Of a DNA stretch of 64,000 bases, positions 14,568-52,227 are shown one piece after another (positions within the stretch are counted from its first letter, which is position 1; every line of letters starts with the position of its first letter). The DNA lies in NCBI RefSeq assembly GCF_044324875.1, contig NZ_CP172185.1. One strand, 5' to 3'. Origin of the DNA: Escherichia coli (lineage in GTDB: Bacteria; Pseudomonadota; Gammaproteobacteria; Enterobacterales; Enterobacteriaceae). Both the position numbers and the translations under genes were made by a program. A model generated the notes under the pieces. It saw only the letters and a list, made by a program, of their open reading frames with translations. It ran no database searches and was not told the origin of the DNA.

Positions 14568-16639
<2,072 letters not shown>

Positions 16640-22855: not shown

Positions 22856-22983
22856 ATTCGCCCCACAAAACTATGCAAATTCAATATATTGCATGAGTCG
22901 AATAGGCCTGACAGGCGTAGCACGTCAGACGGTGTAACCTTTGTCATCAACCCGCCTCTTTTTTAATCGCTCCCCGCCTGTTA

Positions 22984-33617: not shown

Positions 33618-35608
33618 ATGTTGCAACATTATTCAGCGTCATGGAAAAAAGGACTGACTGCACTCTGCTTACTGGCTGTTGCCGGGCTTAGCGGCTGCGA
33701 TCAAAAAGAGAATGCGGCGGCAAAAGTGGAATACGACGAACTTTCGAACAGCCAACCGCTGCGTGTCGATGCTAATAACCATACGGTAACCATGCTGGTG
33801 CAAATTAATGGTCGTTTCCTCACCGACGACACTCGTCACGGTATTGTGAACCGCCCCGGGTTTCCTGGAGAGTGTTTTATCTGTGAACTCAGGCTGCCAG
33901 ATCATCGTTTCCGATGGAAGCATAATAAGCTTTTTCTGCTTCTGCCGGTGGGATATGGCCCAGCCTTTCCAGCAATCGTCGATTGTTATACCAGTCCACC
34001 CACGTGAGTGTGGCCAGCTCCACTTCTGTCCGGTTTTTCCAGCTCTTACGGTGTATTACCTCCGCTTTGTAAAGGCCATTGATGCTCTCCGCCATCGCGT
34101 TGTCATACGAGTCACCAGTACTTCCTGTTGATGCCAGTAATCCGGCTTCCTTAAGCCGCTGTGTGTAGGCCAGCGATACATACTGAGAACCTTTATCACT
34201 GTGATGGACTGTGCCGGACGGTCGACGGGCCCATAACGCCTGCTCCAGAGCATCCAGCACGAATGTCGTTTCCATAGACGATGAGACCCGCCACCCCACG
34301 ATGTATCCGGCAAACACATCAATGATGAACGCCACATAGACGACCCCCTGCCATGTGCTGACGTAAGTAAAATCAGCCACCCACAACTGGTCAGGACGTT
34401 CTGCCACAAACTGACGGTTTACGCGGTCGCCTGCGGCAACGGCTTTCCGGCTGACGGTAGTGCGGACCTTTTTACCCCGGAGAACACCGGCAAGTCCCAT
34501 AACCGCCATGAGGCGCGCCACTGTACATCTGGCTACCCTGATTCCTTCCCGTAACAACTGACGCCAGACTTTACGCACACCGTATACCTGATGATTCCCA
34601 TCGTATACGCGCAGTATCTCTTTCTTCAGCCAGTCATCGCGCTGCGCACGGGCACTGCGTTTATCCGGATGATGTCGCTGTTGCTGACAGTGGTAATACG
34701 TTGACGGGGCAATATGTAGTTCACTGCATACCGGTCCGACCCCGTACAGCTTACGCAGCTTATCCAGCAGTGGCATCACTTTTTCCAGAGGCGGTCGAAC
34801 TCCGCCTTCGCAAAATAAGCGGAAGCCTGGCGAAGGATATCGTTACTGCGGCGCAGTTCACGATTTTCACGTTCCAGCTCTTTCAGACGCTGACGTTCAG
34901 CGGTGGTGAGCCCGCCATCACCGCCTCCGGTATCCCGCTCATGCTGGCGTACCCAGACACGCAGAGTCTCCGGTGTACAGCCAATCTTTGGGGCAATGGA
35001 ACAAATTGCCGCCCACTGTGAGTCATATTCGCCCTGACTTTCCAGAACCATACGAATCGCCCTCTGACGGACTTCGGGGGAAAAACGAGTATTTTTAGTC
35101 ATTCTGTTTACCTCTTTCTCAGGGAGTTTAGTCTCCAGGATTCCCGGGGCGGTTCATTGTGTTTAAAGATGGCTCCAACGGACATAAATCGCTGTTTATG
35201 GGTTATGCGACCCCGAAAGCATTTTATGAAGCCCTGAAAGAGGCAGGTGGTACACCGGGCGAAAACATGACGATGGATAATAAAGAAACGACTCATGTCA
35301 CAGGCAGCAAACTGGATATTTCGGTCAACTGGCAAGGGGCGGCAAAAGCGTATTCCTTCGATGAAGTGATTGTTGACAGTAATGGCAAGAAACTGGACAT
35401 GCGCTTTGGCGGTAATTTAACGGCAGCAGAAGAGAAGAAAACGGGCTGCCTGGTGTGTCTGGATAGCTGCCCGGTCGGCATCGTCAGCAATGCAACATAC
35501 ACTTATGGTGCGGTTGAAAAACGAGGTGAAGTTAAATTCAAAGGCAATGCCTCGGTTCTCCCGGCGGATAACACGCTGGCAACGGTTACCTTTAAAATCA
35601 CCGAATAA
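33618..35608 (+). pseudogene. ydjY: ydjY interrupted by IS629
   Basis: 5' part 33618..33846 (MLQHYSASWKKGLTALCLLAVAGLSGC…TRHGI) and 3' part 35157..35608 (VFKDGSNGHK…TFKITE) are in frame once the 1310-bp IS and one copy of the TTG duplication are removed. Confidence 0.8.
33847..35156 (-). mobile_element. IS629-like insertion sequence (IS3 family), copy 2, 1310 bp, inverted relative to copy 1
   Basis: Same termini; orfA 34776..35102 identical to copy 1; orfB 33889..34779 differs by a few residues (e.g. HPDKR vs HPYKR); 3-bp TSD TTG on both flanks. Confidence 0.85.
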
Positions 35609-36878: not shown

Positions 36879-37065
36879 GGAGGGTACTACCTTCACTTCT
36901 ACCTCTGCCTCCCAAACTCCGTAAAACTCATGCACAATCACCATATTACAGTCAACCCGAACATTATGAGCTCCACTGAATTCTACTGTTCACCCCCTAA
37001 ATCAAGCATAAAATGGGGGCATATTTGGGGGCCCATTGTGTTCAGTCAGTTTCAGGAGCCCCCAT

Positions 37066-38253
37066 ATGGCACTTACAGCCAGACAAGTCGAAACAGCCAA
37101 ACCTAAAGACAAAGATTATAAACTCTCTGATGAACGTGGTTTATATCTGCTGGTAAAAACCACGGGAGCACGCTACTGGCGCTTTAAGTACAGGATAGCA
37201 GGAAAGGAGAAAAAACTGTCCTTCGGTGTCTATCCTGACGTCTCCCTTGCAGAAGCCAGAACCAAACGCGACGATGCAAGGAAAATTATCTCCGAGGGCG
37301 GTGATCCCGGTGAAAAGAAACGAAGGGAAAAACTCTCACAGAAAATCTCTGTCACCAACACCTTCCATGCTCTCGCAATCGAATGGCATCATCATAAATC
37401 TTTATCATGGTCTGACAGTTACGCCAGAAGCGTACTGGAAGCTCTGGATAAAGACGTTTTCCCGTATCTGAGCAACCGGAGCGTTACTGATATCCTTCCA
37501 CTGGAAATGCTGGAAATACTACGTCGAATTGAAAAACGAGGCTCTCTGGAAAAACTACGCAAGGTCCGGCAATACTGCAATCAGATTTTCCGTTATGCCA
37601 TAGCCACAGGACGAGCCACTGTCAATCCAGCCTCAGAACTGAGCAGCACGCTGGCGGCACCAAAAACCGCACATTTTCCCCATCTGAGAGCGGATGAACT
37701 TCCTGTTTTTCTCCGGAAGCTCGCTGACTATCACGGCAGTCCTGTCACTCGTATGGCTACAAACCTGCTGATTCTGACCGGGCTCAGAACGATTGAATTG
37801 CGACTGGCCGAATGGTCAGAAATTGATTCTAGCAACGCACTCTGGCATATCCCTAGAGAGAGAATGAAAATGCGCCGGCCTCATATTGTTCCTCTGTCAC
37901 GCCAGGTCATTTCTGTTCTGCAGGAATTACATGGTTTTACCGGACAGTATCGCCTTATGCTACCCGGACGTTGCGATGTAAACAAACCTATGAGTGAAGG
38001 CTGCATCAATATGGTGCTCAAACGTATCGGTTACGATGGCAGGGCAACCGGTCATGGTTTTCGTCACACCATGAGTACCATTCTGCACGAACAGGGCTTT
38101 AATTCTGCCTGGATTGAAATGCAGTTAGCTCATGTGGATAAAAACTCCATCAGGGGTACCTATAATCATGCACATTATCTCGATGGTCGCCGTAAAATGA
38201 TGCAGTGGTACGCTGATTACATTGATTCTCTTATGGGAAAAACGCACAAATGA
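37066..38253 (+). CDS. int: P4-type tyrosine integrase (phage/island integrase)
   Basis: MALTARQVETAKPKDKDYKLSDERGLYLLVKTTGARYWRFKYR… typical P4-like N-terminus; catalytic region HGFRHT…RGTYNHAHY; RBS CAGGAG upstream. Confidence 0.85.
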   Translation: MALTARQVETAKPKDKDYKLSDERGLYLLVKTTGARYWRFKYRIAGKEKKLSFGVYPDVSLAEARTKRDDARKIISEGGDPGEKKRREKLSQKISVTNTFHALAIEWHHHKSLSWSDSYARSVLEALDKDVFPYLSNRSVTDILPLEMLEILRRIEKRGSLEKLRKVRQYCNQIFRYAIATGRATVNPASELSSTLAAPKTAHFPHLRADELPVFLRKLADYHGSPVTRMATNLLILTGLRTIELRLAEWSEIDSSNALWHIPRERMKMRRPHIVPLSRQVISVLQELHGFTGQYRLMLPGRCDVNKPMSEGCINMVLKRIGYDGRATGHGFRHTMSTILHEQGFNSAWIEMQLAHVDKNSIRGTYNHAHYLDGRRKMMQWYADYIDSLMGKTHK

Positions 38254-38300
38254 AATAAACCATCCCCCACCAACTGCAGCGGTTGGTGGGGGCTTAACTG

Positions 38301-38639
38301 TTATTTTTTGATTTTTGCCTTCAGGCGTGTCCACAGGAAAATGCAAACTGCGGTATATACCCGTGTGATAAACAACAGTTTAAGGCTGAAATACTCTCCT
38401 GCCTCGCTGGCATTCGTTTCAAACATAGCGAAAAGAACACTCTGCGAGAACTCATGACTATAAATAAAATAATAACAGAGTGCTGTCAGTGACGTAGTCC
38501 AGAGAATAATACCGACAACCGCTGCAATAATTTTTATCCGTTCTGGAAAAAGAAACACGGGTATCCGCCACAGGGAGCTGAATAACAGTGAATCTCGTAT
38601 TCCATTTATTCCACCGTATCCGGTGCTGAAGATAATCAC
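38301..38639 (-). CDS. Hypothetical membrane protein (possibly a fragment), downstream of the glycosyltransferase
   Basis: 112-aa hydrophobic ORF; function not recognisable. Confidence 0.3.
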   Translation of the reverse strand: MIIFSTGYGGINGIRDSLLFSSLWRIPVFLFPERIKIIAAVVGIILWTTSLTALCYYFIYSHEFSQSVLFAMFETNASEAGEYFSLKLLFITRVYTAVCIFLWTRLKAKIKK

Positions 38640-38803
38640 CTGCAGCAGGGTGGAAAAGATAAAGTATCGCCCCCGTGCGCTCCGGCTGAAAGCAGGTCTG
38701 CTGTTTCCGGCATTTAAATGTATTGACCATCTCCCGGTAAAATGTAATAAATCCCCCGTTACCGGAAAACCGATGAACAGAATTCGGACAGAAAATGAGT
38801 TCC

Positions 38804-39746
38804 TCAGTTACCTGTTGCGTTTCCCCCGGTCTGATGAGCCAGAGACACAATGGTCTGTACCGTTCTGTTGATATTAAACCGGTATTCGATATCTTCTCTG
38901 GCGCTGGCAACCATCATCCTGAAGCGTTCCGGGCGGGACAAAAAATCCCGAAGCGCACTGGTCCATGCAGTCATATCTCCCACAGGTAAAAGTGTTCCTG
39001 TCACATTTTTCTGAATGGCATCCGGGATCCCGCCAGTCTCACTGGCAATAACGGGAACACCGGAGGCTGACGCTTCAGCCAGGACCATGCCAAATGCCTC
39101 ATTTTTCAGAAGGCATGATAGCACACTGGCAACCCGGTATATCGGTAACGCCGGGAAAACAGCACCAGCCATGAAAACATCACCACTCATTCCCAGTGAT
39201 TCAATCTGCAGGCGAAGGCGTTCTTCGTATTCCTCACGACCAGCGCCCACCACGAGCCATCGAAATACTTTCCCTTCCATCTTCAGTTGGTGCAACACCC
39301 GGAGCATAAATTCATGCCCTTTCTCGGGACGCAACATACCCACCTGGACAATCAGCGGGATATTGCCCGCTGATTCTGTCCATCCCTGAATATGCGGAGG
39401 TAACTGTTGCCTGACTTCTCTGTGTAATACAGAAACGATGCCAGCATATCAGACGGCTCAGGCCTGCAATGTTACTGTCATGACCACTGTGGCAGATTAC
39501 CAGATCAGGTCTGAATTACCGGATTACCTGCCGCAGTCTGATGATGGAAGGAAGGTGAAGACTGTTCCTGAAAGGAATAAAAGTAACATCATGTCCGATT
39601 GTTCTGGCTTCATGAGCTATTTTACTTTTTTCCCTGCAGGCGAGTAAAACAGAATGCCCCTGTTTCTGGAGCGCTGTCATCTGTGCCAGAGCCTGTAACT
39701 CCTGGCCACCAATATCTGGTGAAGACTCAGTGAATAAAATCTTCAT
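38804..39746 (-). pseudogene. Glycosyltransferase family 4 (GT-B), frameshifted
   Basis: N-terminal GT4-like fragment 39516..39746 (MKILFTESSPDIGGQELQALAQ…) and C-terminal GT1/GT4 domain 38804..39343 (…EAFGMVLAEASASGVPVIASETGGIPD…) in different frames. Confidence 0.6.
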
Positions 39747-40401
39747 TATTAATTCTCTGGTAATCTTGGCCCCTTATGAAGAGCCAGTAATGAAGAGAAA
39801 AATGGCGTGATATAATAAAAAGGCACCGTTTCAGCCAACCGCAATATTCCCGTTCTTTTGTACTAATACGTCCTATAAGTAATGAACCTTTTACAGGGCA
39901 GTTCATTCTTCTTTCCGTTGTATATAAATAAGATAAACCAAGTTCTCTGGTGAGATTAATATAATCTCTGCTATAATATCCTGCAGGCCAGCATAGATGG
40001 GGACTACAGTATCCCAGTTTTTCCTTCAGACATTGTTTGCCTGTCATAATAGCTTCTTCCATGAGTCGGCACTGCTCAGTACGTGGTACAGACAGTCTGT
40101 CCCAGCGTTTATGTGAATGGGTATGTAAATGGAATTCAACAAGACCGGAATCACGCATTTCCCGGACTTCAGACCAGCGAAGCATCACTTCATCGGAACG
40201 GTTATCTGCAATCAACTGCTCACAGTCGCGATGCGAATATTCCCGTTTCTGTCTGTAACGCACCTTCCCGTCACCAATCAACCCTGTAATGAGAAAAATA
40301 TGCGTATGAAGATTGTATTCCTTCAGTACCGGCCATGCCCGGAACCAGTTATCAAGATATCCGTCATCGAATGTAATCATGAAGCTCTTTCTTGGAAGCA
40401 T
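39727..40401 (-). CDS. Polysaccharide deacetylase (NodB-homology, CE4)
   Basis: 224-aa ORF with ITFDDGY motif and conserved His-rich region (HLHTHSH). Confidence 0.6.
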   Translation of the reverse strand: MLPRKSFMITFDDGYLDNWFRAWPVLKEYNLHTHIFLITGLIGDGKVRYRQKREYSHRDCEQLIADNRSDEVMLRWSEVREMRDSGLVEFHLHTHSHKRWDRLSVPRTEQCRLMEEAIMTGKQCLKEKLGYCSPHLCWPAGYYSRDYINLTRELGLSYLYTTERRMNCPVKGSLLIGRISTKEREYCGWLKRCLFIISRHFSLHYWLFIRGQDYQRINNEDFIH

Positions 40402-42267
40402 TCCCCCCTGATAAAAATATTAAAGTTCAGCGGATGTTACTGTCCGCCAGTTATTTTTTGCGAGCCACTCTATCTGTTCACAAAATATTTCAGGTGAAAG
40501 TGTCACAAGCCCCGGACAGCGACTGACATGATGGTACATCAGTACGGGAAGATGTCTTGCATTCAACATAAAGCATTATCACCAGTTAGTTATACAGTAA
40601 ATATACCCCGAGTAAAAACAGGGCGGTTTAGGATATGTCTGGCTCCGGGTATTCTACTATGTAATCAGGGAATAATGGACAATGAGAATACAACAGACAC
40701 TTTTAATATTTCCGACTGTTTATCAAAATAATTTTATCCTTTGTGAATATATTGTTTTTATCAGATGATTTACTTATTTTCCAGGAAAATAAAATCCTTC
40801 GATTTCAGGACACTCAGAGGAATATACCTGCTTCCGTCAAAAATCATAAAAACCGTGTCCCGATTAGTTTTAGCAGCAGGATCAAATGCAGTAATATAAT
40901 GATCTTATACCAGTAAGCCACTGGGAAATGCCCTCAAAATGTCGTGCACTGATTTTTCGGTTGAGAGCCTCATAATACCTAATATTACTGGCCGTAATAA
41001 TCCGGAGGCACAGCATAGCTTTCTTGTACAGAGGCATCATGATGAACAGGATTAATACCGTCACAGATGCACAAGTTTTACCCGTGATAAAGAATCCCGT
41101 TTTGTCCGCACTTGCCTGCGCCAGCGTTGAAAACGTGCCGGTTATTGTAGTTAAGTTATTGCCGCTAACTTTTTCACAACCCACCTATCCGGATATTTCC
41201 TTATTCTTCATATATTACATCTCATAAATTTAAATGTGAGTTTCTCATGGGTAAAATAAATTATACGAATCGCATCAATAGGAAAGACAGACGGTGCTGC
41301 CGATATAAAACGGGAAGTGACGGGATAAGCAGTTATGTGAATATTGTTTCAAAAAATGATATTTTGTGTTGTTAAAGTATAACTTTGCAATAAGCTATCC
41401 ATGATGGGATTCTGTAAATGAACAAAACACTCTCTTCAATTCTGCTCATCTTCGGTATCTGTGCATCATCACTGGCTGCTGATAAAAAAGAACCGTCAGT
41501 TTTCCACGATGTGAAGGGCAGGAAGCATCGGCTGTTTCAGCCAGCGTCAAACGGAACTATCTCCAGAAACAGGTGCTTCACAGGAAAGATGACTAGGTGC
41601 TCCTCAGTCAGCAGCGTCCTGTTGTCTGGGTGAATCTTCGTGAGCTGGTAAGTAAAGGTGATAATTTAGTCACAGCGCATCTCACCGCCAGGGGGAATAA
41701 AGCCGATATTCAGTATCGGGTGCGCATTGACTGTAAGAACGAAAACGCTATCTGGCAGCGCCAGGGATGAACGCTTGAAGATAACCACAGAGTATGAACA
41801 AACGGACTCTACATGTTCATTATGACTAAAAAAACGCTGCACGTTCTCTGTTTTATTTTACGTTGCTGTCATAACGTGTTTACCTCAATTTTCGGGAACG
41901 TGTTCTTAGCGCTTAGACTACCCCTGAATCTTCTGCTGTTGAAGGGCCGTAACAGGGTAAGTGATAACAGATGTCTGGACATATAGGAGCAAATTCACCG
42001 ATTTACTTAATCATGATGTTATTTTGTAAAATAAGCTGAGGGGAGTTTCACATAATGTTAGTTTTTGTGTAAACGCAAGAAGGAAAATCAATAAAATTAA
42101 TATATAGTTATATGTTGTAGGTGTGAGTATGACTGTTTGGCCGTGGAGTGCATTCCTAAATTAGGATTGGATCATTTAAGGTTTAACACATTATTAAATA
42201 CGGCAAATTACAGTAAAATACTTTGCCGTATTTAGAAATAAAATTAAATTTTTCTATAGAATATTAT

Positions 42268-42657
42268 TTATCTGAATTTTCGGTGGCCTTCCAGTTTTAT
42301 ATTATTCATTTTATCCAGAGCATCACGTAGTGACTCTATATTCCCCGACTCAACCTTCTCTTTTGCAAGATTGATTTCATTTTGTAGTTTCTTCAACTCA
42401 TTCTTATAACTTTCCACTGCGACTTTATCGTTGCTGTTTATTTTTTCAGGAAGAGTATTCATGGAAGCATTTACAGCTTTGTCCATCATATCAAGAGCAT
42501 TTAATAGAGATTTTTTATCACCAGAGGATTGTAGAGTGCTCATATTTCTTGCAAGGCTCTGCATATTTTTATCCAGTCCGGAAGCCAAAGATATATGACT
42601 GGTAGATAAACACATTACAAGTATAGAACTCACAATAAAGAATTTTTGTTTCTTCAT
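42268..42657 (-). CDS. Cytochrome b562-family protein (secreted four-helix bundle)
   Basis: Signal peptide; heme-ligand Met in DKNMQSL (cf. b562 EDNMETL) and C-terminal His in LEGHRKFR (cf. NAYHQKYR); AT-rich context. Confidence 0.55.
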   Translation of the reverse strand: MKKQKFFIVSSILVMCLSTSHISLASGLDKNMQSLARNMSTLQSSGDKKSLLNALDMMDKAVNASMNTLPEKINSNDKVAVESYKNELKKLQNEINLAKEKVESGNIESLRDALDKMNNIKLEGHRKFR

Positions 42658-44879: not shown

Positions 44880-45110
44880 AAAACCCGTCGGAACCGATTT
44901 TCACCAGAGTAAAAATGGAGACTTGTTCAGCAAACTCTTTTACCCGGAGCCTGTGTGGCCCAGATTGCACGAGAGTCTGGCATCAATGATAATGTTATTT
45001 TCAAATGGCTCAGACTCTGGCAAAACGAAGGGCGTGTTTCGCGGCGTCTTCCGGTAACAACCACTTCTGACGCAGGCGTTGAATTATTACCTATGGAGAT
45101 AACGCCGGAT
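44880..45110 (+). pseudogene. IS3-family transposase OrfA remnant
   Basis: KTRRNRFSPE followed out of frame by AQIARESGINDNVIFKWLRLWQNEG (HTH of IS3-family OrfA). Confidence 0.5.
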
Positions 45111-45663
45111 GAGCAGAAAGATCCGATGATTCCCCTACCGCCAGCTTTTCGCCTGCGCCGGTATACGTTTCTTTATCTTTGCCCTGCATCACCCACAGGC
45201 TGGCTCCGCCGATAATGGCGTTTTGTGGTGCATCTTTCGCGTCAGCGTCGTAAGGCATCATGCCTACGCCGTAGTTGAATTTGGCGTACTCGCGAATGTT
45301 GGCAAGAGAACCGGAAGAGGCGGTGGTCATCGCGCAATCACCTCTATAGAACTTCTCGGTGGATTCATCCTTACGCCCGACGTAGATGAAGTCGCCCTTC
45401 TTGTTCATCTCCTCGAGCATGACGATGTGTTTCACCTGCTCCGGCTTGTTGAACTCCAGCACCGCGTCCGTGGCGTCAAAACCGTTGTTTTTGCTGGCAA
45501 ACGGCAGACCGTTCCTGGCGCTAAAGTTTTCCAGTTGTATCCACCTCTTTGCCCATTTCCCCTTCCATAGAGTTCCAAAACGGAATGGTCGTCACTGCCT
45601 GTGCATTGCCCATTAACGCCAGTCCGAGCACCAGTGATGAAGCTGTATAATGTAACGGTTTCA
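45091..45663 (-). pseudogene. ugpB: sn-glycerol-3-phosphate-binding protein UgpB remnant (internal deletion, 3' truncation)
   Basis: [30 protein letters not shown] (N-terminus) then jump to [36 protein letters not shown]…[17 protein letters not shown], then divergence near 45100. Confidence 0.65.
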
Positions 45664-47552: not shown

Positions 47553-47822
47553 AAAAACACAGGCTAACCGCGCCTGCGTTTTTAATGACGGATGAAACAG
47601 AATCAGGTGCCGATTATGCCGCCGTCGGCTTTTACGATAACGACAGTTGAGGAGCGCGGACGACCAGCCTTATCGCCGTCAGGCCAGCTTGATACTGCCG
47701 TCGGATGCTGCGGATCGCTAAGCTGCGTATTCCGCTCTATTCGATCACGGATTGGCATCGAAGTCCGATCAGCGATTCGCATCCATTCGATCAACCGGGA
47801 ACTTAACTTTTTCTACCGCTTT

Positions 47823-48578
47823 TTAACGCGTTTTTTCGCTGCTTTCCACTACCGGGGGATTTTTCCTCAGTGACTCTCCCTGAAGGACCACTCGGTGTGA
47901 GTTATGTACCAGTCTGTCCAGGATGGCATCTGCTGTTGTTGGGTTCTCCATCAGACCATGCCATTTATCTACCGGGAACTGGCTTACCACTATCGTGCTG
48001 CTTTGTCCGTAACGATCCTCTATGAGCTCCAGAAGGTCATTACACTGGGCGTTACTTAACTGTTCCAGCCCCAGATCGTCCAGGATTAGAACCTGTATTT
48101 TTTGCAACTGTTTCAGATATTTCAGCCAGCTGCCATCAACACGTCCCTGAGCCAGTTGTTCCAGTAATCGCCCGGTTCTACAGTACCGGACGCTGTGTTT
48201 CTGTCGACATGCCTGTTCGCCCAGCGCATTGGCTATCCAGCTCTTGCCACATCCTGTCGGACCGGTTATCAGCAGGTTTTTCCTGTGGGTTATGTAGTGG
48301 CCGTTCAGCAGTTCTCTCATCTGTTCAGCCCGCAGACCTCTTGAGGCCGGATAGCGCAGCCCTTCCGGTGTTGCCTGGTATTTCAGGCCGGCATTTTTTC
48401 TCAACCGTGCCACACGGCTGTTTTCCCTGCTCAGAAGCTCGTCATCAACCAGCAGCGTCAGCCTTTCCTCGAACGACAGTTCGTCGTAGGTCTGAGGCGT
48501 TTCCCGCTGCCGTATCAGGCTCCCGGCCATCGCCGGGAGTTTCAGTTGGGTCAGTTTGTTTAACAGGTTATCACTCAT
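47823..48578 (-). CDS. istB: IS21-family helper ATPase IstB
   Basis: MSDNLLNKLTQLKLPAMAGSL… with Walker A GPTGCGKS and Walker B VLILDDLG. Confidence 0.8.
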   Translation of the reverse strand: MSDNLLNKLTQLKLPAMAGSLIRQRETPQTYDELSFEERLTLLVDDELLSRENSRVARLRKNAGLKYQATPEGLRYPASRGLRAEQMRELLNGHYITHRKNLLITGPTGCGKSWIANALGEQACRQKHSVRYCRTGRLLEQLAQGRVDGSWLKYLKQLQKIQVLILDDLGLEQLSNAQCNDLLELIEDRYGQSSTIVVSQFPVDKWHGLMENPTTADAILDRLVHNSHRVVLQGESLRKNPPVVESSEKTR

Positions 48579-48594
48579 ACTGTTGTTCCTTCTG

Positions 48595-50160
48595 TCAGTG
48601 GTAGTAGCCCGGACCACGCAGGTTTTCATGCTCTGAAGCATATGCCGGATGTTGTTCGCCCTGGCGGGATAATGGAAGCTCCAGGTTCTCCCGATGGTGA
48701 CGCAGCAGATTGTCGATAAAGCGTCTGTCAGGGGCGTTATAGTGCAGGGCAACGTAACAGGCCTTTTCCAGCCGTTCCGGGCCGTATTTTTTCTGAAGTG
48801 CCAGCAGCCCCAGAACTGCACGATAAGCCAGTTCCGGATGGGGTTTTGCCTTCAGCATGGATTCAACCACCCGGCCTGTGGACGGGCCCGTACGTTTTCC
48901 CTGCTCGATCAGGCGTTCCGGTGTCCATGTCCCGTGCTGCCGGTGGCGCTCTGGCATGTGAAGCGGATTGGTTGTGTGTTTATATTCATGTGTGCTGCGC
49001 GGATGTTGCGCCACACACTGCCCCTTGTGCCAGAGCTGTACCACCGACTGCCCCGCCTTCAGTGACAGACGCTGACCGACCAGTTCGTGTGGAACGGAGT
49101 ACCAGTGACGGGCATATTCAACGTGGTAGTCAGGGCCAACCTTCACAGCTTTGTATTCCGTGTATTCATAAGGTGCCAGAGGCAGCGGAGAGAGTGCTGG
49201 CGCATCCAGTATGCGGAAGCGTTCTGCACGGGTTTGATTGCCGTACCCCTTCATTGGCCGGTTATTCATGTCTGTCAGTAACTCCCTAAGGCGCGCATTC
49301 AGCGCCCTGAGCGTGTGGAAGGTTTCATTACGGATGCGGGCAAGAAGCCATCGTTCAACGATGAGGACGCCGTTTTCTGCTTTTGGTTTATCTTTAGGTT
49401 TGCGTGGTCGGGCCGGGATGATAACCGTGCCATAGTGCTCAGCCAGTGCCTGATAACTGTCGTTGATGACAGGCTCATATCGATCGGCCTTTTTCACTGC
49501 GCTTCTGAGGTTATCGGGGATGAGCAGCTTCGGTACGCCGCCCAGGAAGGTCAGGCAACGGCTGTGGGCATTTAACCATGACATCATGTCCTGACCTTCG
49601 CACGCTTCAACGTAGGTATAGTTGGACGCCCCCATTACGGCCACGAAGATTGCCACGCGGCGTATCTCACCGGTGTCCGGATTAATAACAGGAACCGTAG
49701 GACCACAGAAGTCGATAAAAAGCTTTTCGCCGGCACGATGCTCCTGGCGCATGGAGAGACGTCGCGTTTTTTTCCACTCCCGGTAGCAACGGCAGAAGTG
49801 CGAGTATCCCATCGCTTTGTTACCCGCCTGTGCCTTGTATTCCATCCACAACAGTTGCCGCGTCACACCTGGTTTTCTCATTTCCGTATCGAAGTACAAC
49901 ATGTCAGGCATTACAAGCTCTGATGCAAAGGTGTCTTTGGGCGGAAAAATGAGTTTCTCCAGCGTGTCATGGGATATATCAGCAGGTAATGGCCATGACA
50001 GAGAAGAGGCTTTGAAGCGGGCAAGAACCTCAAAAACGGTTGAGGCGCTGATGTGTAACGTCAGTCCGATACAACGGTTAGTCAGCTTCTTGTCGAACTT
50101 GAGCTGAAGGATCTTAAAACAGGTTTCCATAGTGCTCCTGGATTTTCTCTTTCTGGACAT
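48595..50160 (-). CDS. istA: IS21-family transposase IstA
   Basis: About 510-520 aa with HTH N-terminus and DDE integrase core; start codon uncertain (ORF extends to 50241). Confidence 0.75.
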   Translation of the reverse strand: MSRKRKSRSTMETCFKILQLKFDKKLTNRCIGLTLHISASTVFEVLARFKASSLSWPLPADISHDTLEKLIFPPKDTFASELVMPDMLYFDTEMRKPGVTRQLLWMEYKAQAGNKAMGYSHFCRCYREWKKTRRLSMRQEHRAGEKLFIDFCGPTVPVINPDTGEIRRVAIFVAVMGASNYTYVEACEGQDMMSWLNAHSRCLTFLGGVPKLLIPDNLRSAVKKADRYEPVINDSYQALAEHYGTVIIPARPRKPKDKPKAENGVLIVERWLLARIRNETFHTLRALNARLRELLTDMNNRPMKGYGNQTRAERFRILDAPALSPLPLAPYEYTEYKAVKVGPDYHVEYARHWYSVPHELVGQRLSLKAGQSVVQLWHKGQCVAQHPRSTHEYKHTTNPLHMPERHRQHGTWTPERLIEQGKRTGPSTGRVVESMLKAKPHPELAYRAVLGLLALQKKYGPERLEKACYVALHYNAPDRRFIDNLLRHHRENLELPLSRQGEQHPAYASEHENLRGPGYYH

Positions 50161-50241
50161 TGACGTCTCCACTGGTTTAAACACGGCAATGGAGACTGTG
50201 GTGAAAAGAGTTAATTCCCGGAGTGACTGGCAGGATGCCAA

Positions 50242-52227
50242 TCAATGATCGGAAGCATGCCAAATCGTGATCGATTGTGATGCCAAACTGTGATCGGAGA
50301 TGGATGCCAAATCATGATCGATTCGAATGCCAAACTGCGATCGATTCAGATGCCATTTTGCACTAAGCCCTTCGCTTGGCTCGCCAGGGTGCTGGATGTT
50401 AATAAACAGCGTCCGGTTATCCGGAGTGAACGCGATGCCGGTGATTTCGCAGCCGCGCGGGCCGGTCAGGAAGCGGCGGAACTCATTGGTACCGGGAATC
50501 GTCGCCACCATCTGGTTGTTGCCCATGCCTTTGTAATCTTTAATATTTATGGTTGATGACGACACGTCGGTCTGGATCCATAGCACGCCGCGGTGATCGA
50601 AGCTCAGGCCATCGGCGCTGCCGAATTCCGCACCCTTCATGCTGCCTTTGGTTTCCGGTTTGTCTGTATCGGTGCGACCGCCCATCACAAGAATATCCCA
50701 GGCAAACTGCAGCGCGGTCGGGTCACCGTTATGCTCCAGCCAGTGAATGATGTGGCCGTAAACGTTTTTGGCGCGCGGGTTGGCCGCATCCACTGGCGCT
50801 TTTCCTTCCTTACCGCGATCGCTGTTGTTGGTGAGCGTGCAGTAAACGCTGCCGGCGTGATATGGATCGACCGCAATCCACTCCGGGCGGTCCATTTTAG
50901 TGGCCCCCACGGCGTCTGCCGCCAGACGGGTTTTAATCAACAGGTCGCCCTGGTTTTCAAACCCTTTACTGGCGTCGAGCCCATTTTGTCCGAACACCAG
51001 CGGTAGCCACTCGCCTTTGCCGTCGTCGTTAAATTTCGCCACGTACAGAGTGCCTTTTTCCAGCAGGTGCATGTTGGCTTTGCGATCCTGCGGGTTGAAT
51101 TTTCCTTCCGAGACAAATTTATATATGTATTCGAATTTCTGGTCATCGCCCATATAGACCACAACGCGGTTATCCGGGGCAATTGTCACCGCTGCGCCTT
51201 CGTGTTTGATGCGACCAAGCGCGGTGTGCTTGCGCGGCACTGAATGCGGATCGTATGGATCGATTTCCACCACCCAGCCGAAGCGGTTCGGCTCGTTCGG
51301 CGTGGCGTCGACGCTGAACCTTTTATCCACTTCGTTCCAGCGGTAAGAGTCGTCGCTCCCGCTGATACCGTAACGTTTTTCCAGCGGGTTCATCTCTGCT
51401 TTTTTTACGAAAATATCGGACCAGTTCTCTTCACACGTCAGATAGGTGCCCCACGGCGTAAATCCGTTGGCACAGTTCTGCATGGTGCCGAGAATGATTT
51501 CGCCTTTCGGATCGTCAACTGTTTGCATCAGTGGGTTATGCAGCGCCGGACCGGTGATTTTCATCGGCGTGTTAACGGTGATGCGGCGTGCGAACGATGA
51601 CGGGCGCACCACTTCCCAGCCCAGGGGCACTTTTTTTACTTCAATGACCGACACGCCCATCGCGTTCTGGCCTTTAAGAGCTTTATCGGCGCTCCAGTTG
51701 GCATCGCCATCTTTAAACAGTAGACCGTTATCGATGTATTCATGGTTTATGGCAAGCAGGCCGTGATCGGAGCTGTTCCCGCCCTGCGGCAGGCTAAACC
51801 ACGCCATGCCGTCGTGGTGCATCCCGGCCTGCGCCGCCTGTTCTTCCGTGGTGTTGCTACCGTCGGTTTTAAAAACCGGCAGATTTCCGGCAATCCCGGT
51901 GGCGTCGCCCCATTTGTAGAAGGGCTTCGCGATGTATCCTTCCGGCACGATAACGGTATCTTCCGTGGAAACCGGCAGGCTGGTGAAACCGAGCGTCGTC
52001 GCTTTGCCGAGGTTACCGCTTGCTTTGGAGACCACTTTCGCCAGCGCGTTTTCCTGTTTCAGCAGAAATGGGAACGCTGCCGCGGCACCGGCGACCGTGC
52101 CTGCCTGTAACAGACGGCGGCGTGACAAATAGACTTCCGCCACCTGCGAAAACGCGCGGTTATCGCTCGGGTTACTGATTTCTTCACTATGCTCACGTTT
52201 GAATAAAGTTTTTAACGGTCTGCCCAT
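50242..52227 (-). CDS. Tat-signal secreted PhoX-family (DUF839) phosphatase-like protein; C-terminus replaced by IS21-derived codons
   Basis: 661-aa ORF; twin-arginine motif SRRRLLQAGTVAGAAAA; beta-propeller-like repeats; last about 40 codons read through the IS21 terminal repeats. Confidence 0.45.
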   Translation of the reverse strand: MGRPLKTLFKREHSEEISNPSDNRAFSQVAEVYLSRRRLLQAGTVAGAAAAFPFLLKQENALAKVVSKASGNLGKATTLGFTSLPVSTEDTVIVPEGYIAKPFYKWGDATGIAGNLPVFKTDGSNTTEEQAAQAGMHHDGMAWFSLPQGGNSSDHGLLAINHEYIDNGLLFKDGDANWSADKALKGQNAMGVSVIEVKKVPLGWEVVRPSSFARRITVNTPMKITGPALHNPLMQTVDDPKGEIILGTMQNCANGFTPWGTYLTCEENWSDIFVKKAEMNPLEKRYGISGSDDSYRWNEVDKRFSVDATPNEPNRFGWVVEIDPYDPHSVPRKHTALGRIKHEGAAVTIAPDNRVVVYMGDDQKFEYIYKFVSEGKFNPQDRKANMHLLEKGTLYVAKFNDDGKGEWLPLVFGQNGLDASKGFENQGDLLIKTRLAADAVGATKMDRPEWIAVDPYHAGSVYCTLTNNSDRGKEGKAPVDAANPRAKNVYGHIIHWLEHNGDPTALQFAWDILVMGGRTDTDKPETKGSMKGAEFGSADGLSFDHRGVLWIQTDVSSSTINIKDYKGMGNNQMVATIPGTNEFRRFLTGPRGCEITGIAFTPDNRTLFINIQHPGEPSEGLSAKWHLNRSQFGIRIDHDLASISDHSLASQSITIWHASDH

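Follow-up and report, generated by a model that had tools for sequence, protein, structure and literature searches.

Three co-oriented coding remnants lie on the minus strand directly downstream of a P4-type integrase gene (37066-38253, plus strand) in a 64,000-nucleotide stretch of Escherichia coli DNA, here called the window. They are very probably a non-functional, decaying chromosomal copy of an ecf-type LPS-modification operon. As it stands in the window the operon is non-functional: the lesions comprise two nonsense codons, several frameshifts (at least five indels in the lesion comparison), and a 164-bp deletion; the third gene has lost its start codon and is cut short, and the fourth is gone. 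A sequence-only reading had placed three co-oriented genes beside the integrase, and had proposed an operon for modifying a surface glycan that could not be assigned to a known cluster. Coding remnants are indeed there, and the ancestral unit is supported by ecf/shf homology, but a working operon is not what the window holds; and an assignment can be made, to the ecf operon of the EHEC plasmid pO157, a relative of the Shigella/EAEC shf locus. The locus is an ordinary pseudogene remnant within a mosaic genomic island, of a kind already known and with its pseudogenes already flagged in public annotation.

The minus-strand open reading frames occupy positions 38301-38639 (112 aa), 38804-39343 (179 aa) together with 39516-39746 (76 aa), and 39727-40401 (224 aa). 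The pO157 operon, which adjoins espP, encodes a deacetylase (273 aa), a GT4 glycosyltransferase (368 aa), CptA (573 aa), and LpxM. When these four proteins were compared with the window by tblastn, matches were found for the deacetylase (E 5e-148), the GT4 enzyme (2e-105 and 6e-58), and CptA (5e-57), and none in the window for LpxM. The first three ecf genes thus stand in the correct order on one strand, with the distal three quarters of cptA missing. Nucleotide identity to pO157 (blastn) is 85% over 40621-39426 and 80% over 39418-38322, about 2.3 kb in total. RefSeq (PGAP) annotation of a genome identical in sequence labels the deacetylase and GT4 features each "frameshifted; internal stop" and cptA "incomplete; missing C-terminus"; strain NRZ14408 carries identical pseudogene flags on all three features.

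The likeness to the pO157 operon extends to gene order and orientation, deacetylase to GT4 (ecf2/wabB) to CptA-type (ecf3), and to the manner in which the deacetylase stop abuts the GT4 start. The differences are that the window copy is chromosomal, in an island after ynjA, whereas that of pO157 is plasmid-borne; that in the window ecf3 is reduced to about a quarter and lpxM/msbB2 (ecf4) is missing, with every remaining gene disrupted; and that the match to pO157 extends no more than about 50 bp upstream of the operon's start codon. The ecf products have been named polysaccharide deacetylase (ecf1), LPS 1,7-N-acetylglucosamine transferase (ecf2), membrane protein (ecf3), and MsbB2 (ecf4) (PMC2323221; also PMC2811833, PMC9420067).

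The shf locus of Shigella pINV and of EAEC 042, shf(SfpgdA)-capU(wabB/rfbU/Sfgtr4)-virK-msbB2, is a more divergent relative whose copies are intact. Its first two genes are homologous, the Shigella pINV deacetylase and CapU (GT4) showing 69% and 62% protein identity, respectively, to the intact sister copy described below, and its general role is likewise that of a PhoP-regulated envelope/LPS modification module (PMC7355660, PMC2808357). The window is nevertheless of the ecf type rather than the shf type, because a cptA fragment stands third, where Shigella (deacetylase, capU, virK, lpxM) has virK. In EAEC 042 the shf locus is found on the chromosome as well as on the plasmid (PMC2808357). For Shigella SfPgdA, peptidoglycan deacetylase activity and binding to SfGtr4 have been reported, under PhoP regulation of the locus (PMC7355660); in the R3 LPS core, heptose III receives GlcN(Ac) from WabB/RfbU (PMC2808357; bioRxiv 10.1101/536201).

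Judging from this literature on homologues, the products of an intact operon would act on the envelope. On an LPS core of the R3 type, the GT4 enzyme (WabB) would attach GlcNAc to heptose III; the PgaB/IcaB-like CE4 enzyme would deacetylate a GlcNAc-containing envelope glycan, conceivably the core GlcNAc itself; family membership predicts that the CptA-type enzyme decorates the core with phosphoethanolamine; and LpxM/MsbB2 would myristoylate lipid A.

The deacetylase pseudogene (ecf1/shf/SfPgdA type) spans 39749-40569 on the minus strand, as delimited by tblastn, the lesion map, Pfam PF01522, and the RefSeq flags. It had been taken for intact, and it is not. Base-by-base comparison reveals that codon 50, GAG (Glu) in relatives, has become TAA at 40420-40422, and at codon 250 a -1 frameshift leaves T5 (39817-39821) in place of the T6 run of relatives. 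In agreement, residues 1-251 of the pO157 deacetylase match 40569-39817 at 85% identity in one frame that runs across the stop, and residues 251-273 match in another (tblastn). A first sign that the 224-aa frame is an internal fragment was a 49-aa minus-strand frame at 40420-40569 (MLNARHLPVLMYHHV...), which shares its frame and is parted from it by the single TAA. The initiator of the 224-aa frame is an internal Met, produced by a Thr-to-Met change relative to intact copies; the first 56 residues are absent, and the last 23 are a frameshifted tail. Reading in this shifted frame misses the true TAA and continues into the GT4 gene, so that the deacetylase seems to overlap the GT4 start by 20 bp; this had been read as a sign of an operon. 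Where the genes are intact, the deacetylase TAA either stops 2 nt short of the GT4 ATG or overlaps it by 1 nt (TAATAATG or TAATGATG).

What remains of the enzyme is nonetheless recognizable: the 224-aa frame matches Polysacc_deac_1 (PF01522, E 3.6e-22), as the earlier CE4 call had it. The catalytic motifs are divided, with TFDDG and HTHSH in the 224-aa frame and YHH in the 49-aa frame upstream of the TAA at 40420-40422, which is why the longer frame lacks the N-terminal YH motif. The PgaB/IcaB branch has a circularly permuted CE4 domain (PMC5855634), and the conserved active-site residues of PgaB include Asp114, Asp115, and, near the N-terminus, His55 (PMC7112194). The N-terminal VLMYHHV of the window aligns with VLCYHRV of IcaB (4wcj), and by motif would correspond to ISWHNV of PgaB, where His55 lies. 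Among solved structures the best relatives are these poly-beta-1,6-GlcNAc de-N-acetylases (IcaB 4wcj, E 1e-20; PgaB/BpsB, E 1e-10 to 1e-13), which have the N-terminal YH, TFDDG, and HxxxH motifs in common with the window protein. However, no pgaACD or icaADC partners are present, and NCBIfam scores are 61-101 bits against an equivalog cut-off of 322. On these grounds the window deacetylase is a distant paralogue and not PgaB.

The GT4 pseudogene (ecf2/wabB/rfbU/capU type) lies at 38804-39749 on the minus strand, delimited by tblastn of pO157 Ecf2, the lesion map against the intact sister copy, and the RefSeq flags. That this gene is split between two frames was noticed correctly, but a single frameshift does not account for its state. 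Codon 78 has changed from GAA to TAA (39516-39518); a 164-bp out-of-frame deletion at 39436/39435 has removed codons ~105-160; and three further 1-bp indels are present, a -1/+1 pair at 39121/39107 and a -1 at 38827 near the 3' end. Accordingly, Ecf2 residues 1-111 match 39749-39417, and residues 163-367 match 39427-38813 in a different frame (tblastn). As to whether the frameshift sits in a homopolymer, two of the small indels fall in short A or G runs, but the large deletion does not: this is flanked by imperfect 11-nt direct repeats, TTTCAGTATTA and TTTCTGTATTA, with no homopolymer, which suggests illegitimate recombination between short repeats. An intact GT4 relative matches PF00534 and PF13439 plus related GT4 families (Pfam), and in the window the frame at 38804-39343 still matches GT4-family models, in keeping with the original family call. 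The two Rossmann-like GT4 domains are no longer in one frame: the N-terminal domain is cut by the TAA and the deletion, and the C-terminal domain lies in the other frame. The gtrABC O-antigen glucosylation cassette (GtrA flippase, GtrB GT2, serotype-specific Gtr) was also considered and is ruled out, as had been supposed for gtrAB; all three frames match CE4, GT4, and CptA.

The third feature, previously described as a small membrane protein, is a fragment of a CptA/ecf3-type phosphoethanolamine transferase pseudogene at 38319-38723 on the minus strand (BLASTP, NCBIfam, RefSeq), comprising codons 1 to ~143 of 570. Its start codon has changed from ATG to ATA (38721-38723), and three short in-frame deletions are present. 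By BLASTP the stub is 78% identical to residues 1-143 of intact CptA, and of pO157 CptA only residues 1-144 find a match, at 38723-38316 (tblastn). The 112-aa frame matches NCBIfam NF012179 (CptA, E 8e-43) over profile positions 22-131 of 556 only; an intact relative scores 1,062 bits against the full-length CptA subfamily model PRK10649. This frame (38301-38639) consists of the part of cptA that follows an internal GTG, plus a six-residue tail (KAKIKK) and a stop. The tail, beyond 38322, is read from integrase-flank DNA; in every locus compared, ecf-type homology stops at 38322, the truncation point of cptA. The "small membrane protein" is therefore the N-terminal transmembrane stub of a CptA-type transferase and no gene of its own. 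With homology ending at codon ~143 of 570, the periplasmic sulfatase-like catalytic domain of the CptA/EptC type is missing.

The closest relative found is a chromosomal ecf-type module in E. coli LH50-c (locus L003). It is 92-97% identical in nucleotide sequence over window positions 38322-41814, including the promoter region and a divergent YebF-family gene, and its deacetylase shows 90.5% protein identity to those of pO157-type E. coli plasmids. It differs from the window in that the deacetylase, GT4, and lpxM genes are intact, with cptA a pseudogene, and in its genomic neighborhood, which has no adjacent integrase.

Comparison with this intact lineage, with substitutions polarized by the outgroups pO157 and L004, reveals how the window copy has been evolving. 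Pooled nonsynonymous and synonymous changes number 29 : 10 in the window lineage versus 6 : 12 in the L003 lineage (Fisher p = 0.007). For the deacetylase the counts are 17 : 3 versus 1 : 2, and for GT4 12 : 7 versus 5 : 10; these single-gene contrasts are not significant (Fisher p = 0.11 and 0.17), so that significance resides in the pooled counts only. A proportion of 29 nonsynonymous changes in 39 is compatible with neutrality (p = 0.85) and rejects the omega of ~0.11 of intact copies (p = 3e-10). This pattern fits neutral drift of the window copy.

A megablast search of 38250-40650 against 5,426 complete E. coli genomes returned matches in 573 genomes at 578 places, 543 of them plasmid-borne. 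At 80-90% identity stand 544 records, among them pO157 and the large plasmids from EHEC strains such as O145 and O111; the LH50-c chromosome is the sole record at 94.5%. Twenty-nine records reach at least 99% identity, and those listed are chromosomes; the identical (100.0%) records among those listed come from different strains, of chicken, swine, and human sources. A search of PLSDB for a plasmid donor found none more than 86% identical to the remnant, the best being E. coli ecf-type plasmids at 84-86%.

These data bear on other explanations for the broken frames. The plus strand has overlapping open reading frames of 122-124 aa, so the minus-strand frames might in principle be shadows of a gene on the opposite strand, a possibility that the sequence-only reading had itself raised. 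On the minus strand, three successive genes of a known operon find their homologues in the right order, with E values down to 5e-148 (tblastn), which leaves that idea with next to no probability. Much the same can be said of the idea that the operon is really intact and that sequencing or assembly produced the stops and frameshifts. Some long-read assemblies do contain frequent homopolymer errors, but base substitutions and a 164-bp deletion are untypical of read errors, and the sequence recurs at 99% identity or more in 29 complete genomes, of which the 100.0% matches listed span different strains and hosts; such an origin is extremely improbable. A third proposal would keep the operon in working order, with the glycosyltransferase switched on and off by homopolymer slippage. 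The deacetylase frameshift in a T run (T5 versus T6) and the two small GT4 indels in A or G runs are what phase variation might leave. These runs are short, however, at 5-6 nt, and slippage cannot repair two nonsense codons, the 164-bp deletion, the lost cptA start, or a cptA cut to ~143 of 570 codons. Nor is length variation seen: most of those listed among the 29 near-identical complete genomes match at 100.0%. Phase variation is thus hardly credible.

A somewhat less remote idea, yet still a most unlikely one, is that the deacetylase alone survives as a shortened active enzyme that starts at the internal Met of the 224-aa frame. This would be helped by a G-rich, Shine-Dalgarno-like stretch ahead of the ATG and by retention of the PF01522 match (E 3.6e-22) with the TFDDG and HTHSH metal/base motifs. 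Against it, the 56 residues lost from the N-terminus include the conserved motif (V/I)LxYHxV, whose His is the counterpart of His55 of PgaB (PMC7112194); the last 23 residues have been replaced; changes in the gene along the window lineage are 17 nonsynonymous to 3 synonymous; and RefSeq calls a pseudogene. Some residual translation of a truncated CE4 polypeptide from this frame may occur. There is likewise only a slim chance that the remnant is not wholly inert, either through such a fragment retaining some deacetylase or glycan-binding activity, or through a surviving ecf promoter that transcribes through the dead genes towards the convergent integrase 3' end and affects island stability.

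The decayed ecf-type operon, then, is the preferred reading, and the order of events that produced it can be sketched. A mosaic island that inserted immediately behind ynjA would have brought the module in; at a junction with the integrase flank the module would have lost its distal end, the whole of lpxM and the greater part of cptA; and nonsense codons, frameshifts, and the deletion would then have built up under neutral drift, leaving a remnant presumably of no use to the present-day cell envelope. To recognize a decayed ecf/shf LPS-modification operon in a glycan locus that had looked unassignable matters little in itself. It does correct the gene calls, in that there is neither an intact deacetylase nor a stand-alone small membrane protein; in annotation, all three features are best entered as pseudogenes and left out of the strain's envelope-modifying capacity. 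A small point of natural history is that ecf-type modules, mostly plasmid-borne, are occasionally captured on chromosomal islands, the copy here apparently decaying neutrally.

The remnant lies within a mosaic island. Core-genome homology (ydjX, ydjY, ydjZ, ynjA) extends to 36882, 4 nt beyond the ynjA stop, and the integrase and everything to its right co-occur in only about 30 of the 5,426 complete E. coli genomes. The integrase, at the left edge of the island, is intact (RefSeq (PGAP) annotation of the identical genome; NCBIfam PRK09692, E 3e-89). The island does not lie at a tRNA gene, since a tRNA scan of the window finds none. It is an IS-ridden mosaic of remnants that includes a cytochrome b562-like gene; IS21, IS66, IS5, and IS630 elements; a short ssb gene, a PerC-family regulator gene, a ProQ/FinO fragment, and broken ABC-transporter genes; and phoX, broken integrating-conjugative-element genes, and iha. 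Between the integrase and the cptA stub a terminator-like scan and folding identify a G+C-rich hairpin at 38264-38292, T-rich on both sides, with 11 pairs of which 8 are G-C (-26.4 kcal/mol, z = -3.3). Its placement resembles that of a two-way terminator. Because ecf-type homology stops at 38322, it is counted as integrase-side rather than ecf-like DNA.

Upstream of the deacetylase lies an A+T-rich intergenic region (40570-41417, ~36-43% G+C), defined by its composition profile and its conservation in LH50-c, to which window positions 39425-41814 are 95% identical (blastn). This is presumably the old promoter region. The ecf operon of pO157 is characterized by a thermoregulated promoter ahead of ecf1 in which the DNA (BNT2) is intrinsically curved. 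A promoter scan of 38100-41500 finds seven sigma-70-like sites against 7.8 expected by chance. PhoP-box-like matches (KGTTTA-N5-KGTTTA, two mismatches) number 30 window-wide against 17.9 expected, the individual sites being poor; those at 40591-40618, just upstream of the deacetylase, are weak. No individual promoter-like or PhoP-box-like match in the upstream region rises above chance. Beyond this region lies the divergent YebF-family gene that accompanies the module (41418-41770, plus strand), identified by alignment with the LH50-c module, tract lengths, and RefSeq. A poly-A tract throws it out of frame: the tract is A6 in the window and A8 in LH50-c, and only A7 would keep the frame. RefSeq names only the gene's distal 57 aa "YebF family protein". 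An Rfam scan of the window finds nothing in or near the locus, its matches lying elsewhere: two IS3-type ALIL frameshift elements and one sRNA.

The divergent neighbor of the ecf remnant (a decayed minus-strand LPS-modification operon) is a YebF-family gene on the plus strand (41418-41770). Its signal-peptide frame is joined to the mature-protein frame by a poly-A tract at about 41483-41488, and the tract varies in length: A6 in the window and in two further island genomes that were read (loci L001 and L005), and A8 in LH50-c, the strain with the closest, more intact chromosomal ecf-type copy. An in-frame gene requires A7; neither A6 nor A8 fits. In strain AR_0085 the annotation of a 94.7%-identical copy calls it a pseudogene, on account of an internal stop. 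Simple decay could explain the frame break; so could expression that is prone to slippage.

A cytochrome b562-like gene (42268-42657, minus strand; 129 aa), apparently intact, sits in a very A+T-rich region (30-33% G+C) bounded by the YebF-family gene and by IS remnants. The protein matches NCBIfam PRK15058 with an E-value of 1e-19, short of the curated cut-off.

The rest of the island, from 43000 to 63700, is a patchwork. It includes a short ssb gene, a gene for a PerC-family regulator, and a ProQ/FinO fragment, along with a UgpB-like fragment (45094-45462), phoX (50245-52227), a broken gene of an integrating conjugative element (56829-57356), an intact iha gene for a siderophore receptor/adhesin (58685-60769), and an IS630 (62523-63554). 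An IS21-family element (istA/istB) occupies 47724-50362. The island-bearing strain NRZ14408, the closest complete genome compared, lacks this element at the matching position. Elsewhere in the same island NRZ14408 has one copy of ISEc12 and two of IS1414; IS activity in this island therefore continues. NRZ14408 also lacks both copies of an IS3-family element present in the window (15255-16562 and 33849-35155), the second of which interrupts ydjY. Rfam matches identify an ALIL frameshift pseudoknot in each (15590-15706, plus strand; 34705-34821, minus strand).

The island, with its intact P4-type integrase, begins 4 nt past the ynjA stop codon (window 36879-37066); this left end is the one covered, the right end lying outside the window. 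The whole window contains no tRNA genes, and a site after ynjA, without a tRNA gene, is an unusual target for a P4-type integrase.

In the core-genome portion, between nadE and cho, Rfam matches the sRNA ES036 (CssrF) at 22867-22909 on the plus strand, with a score (38.9 bits) barely over the gathering threshold (37.6 bits).
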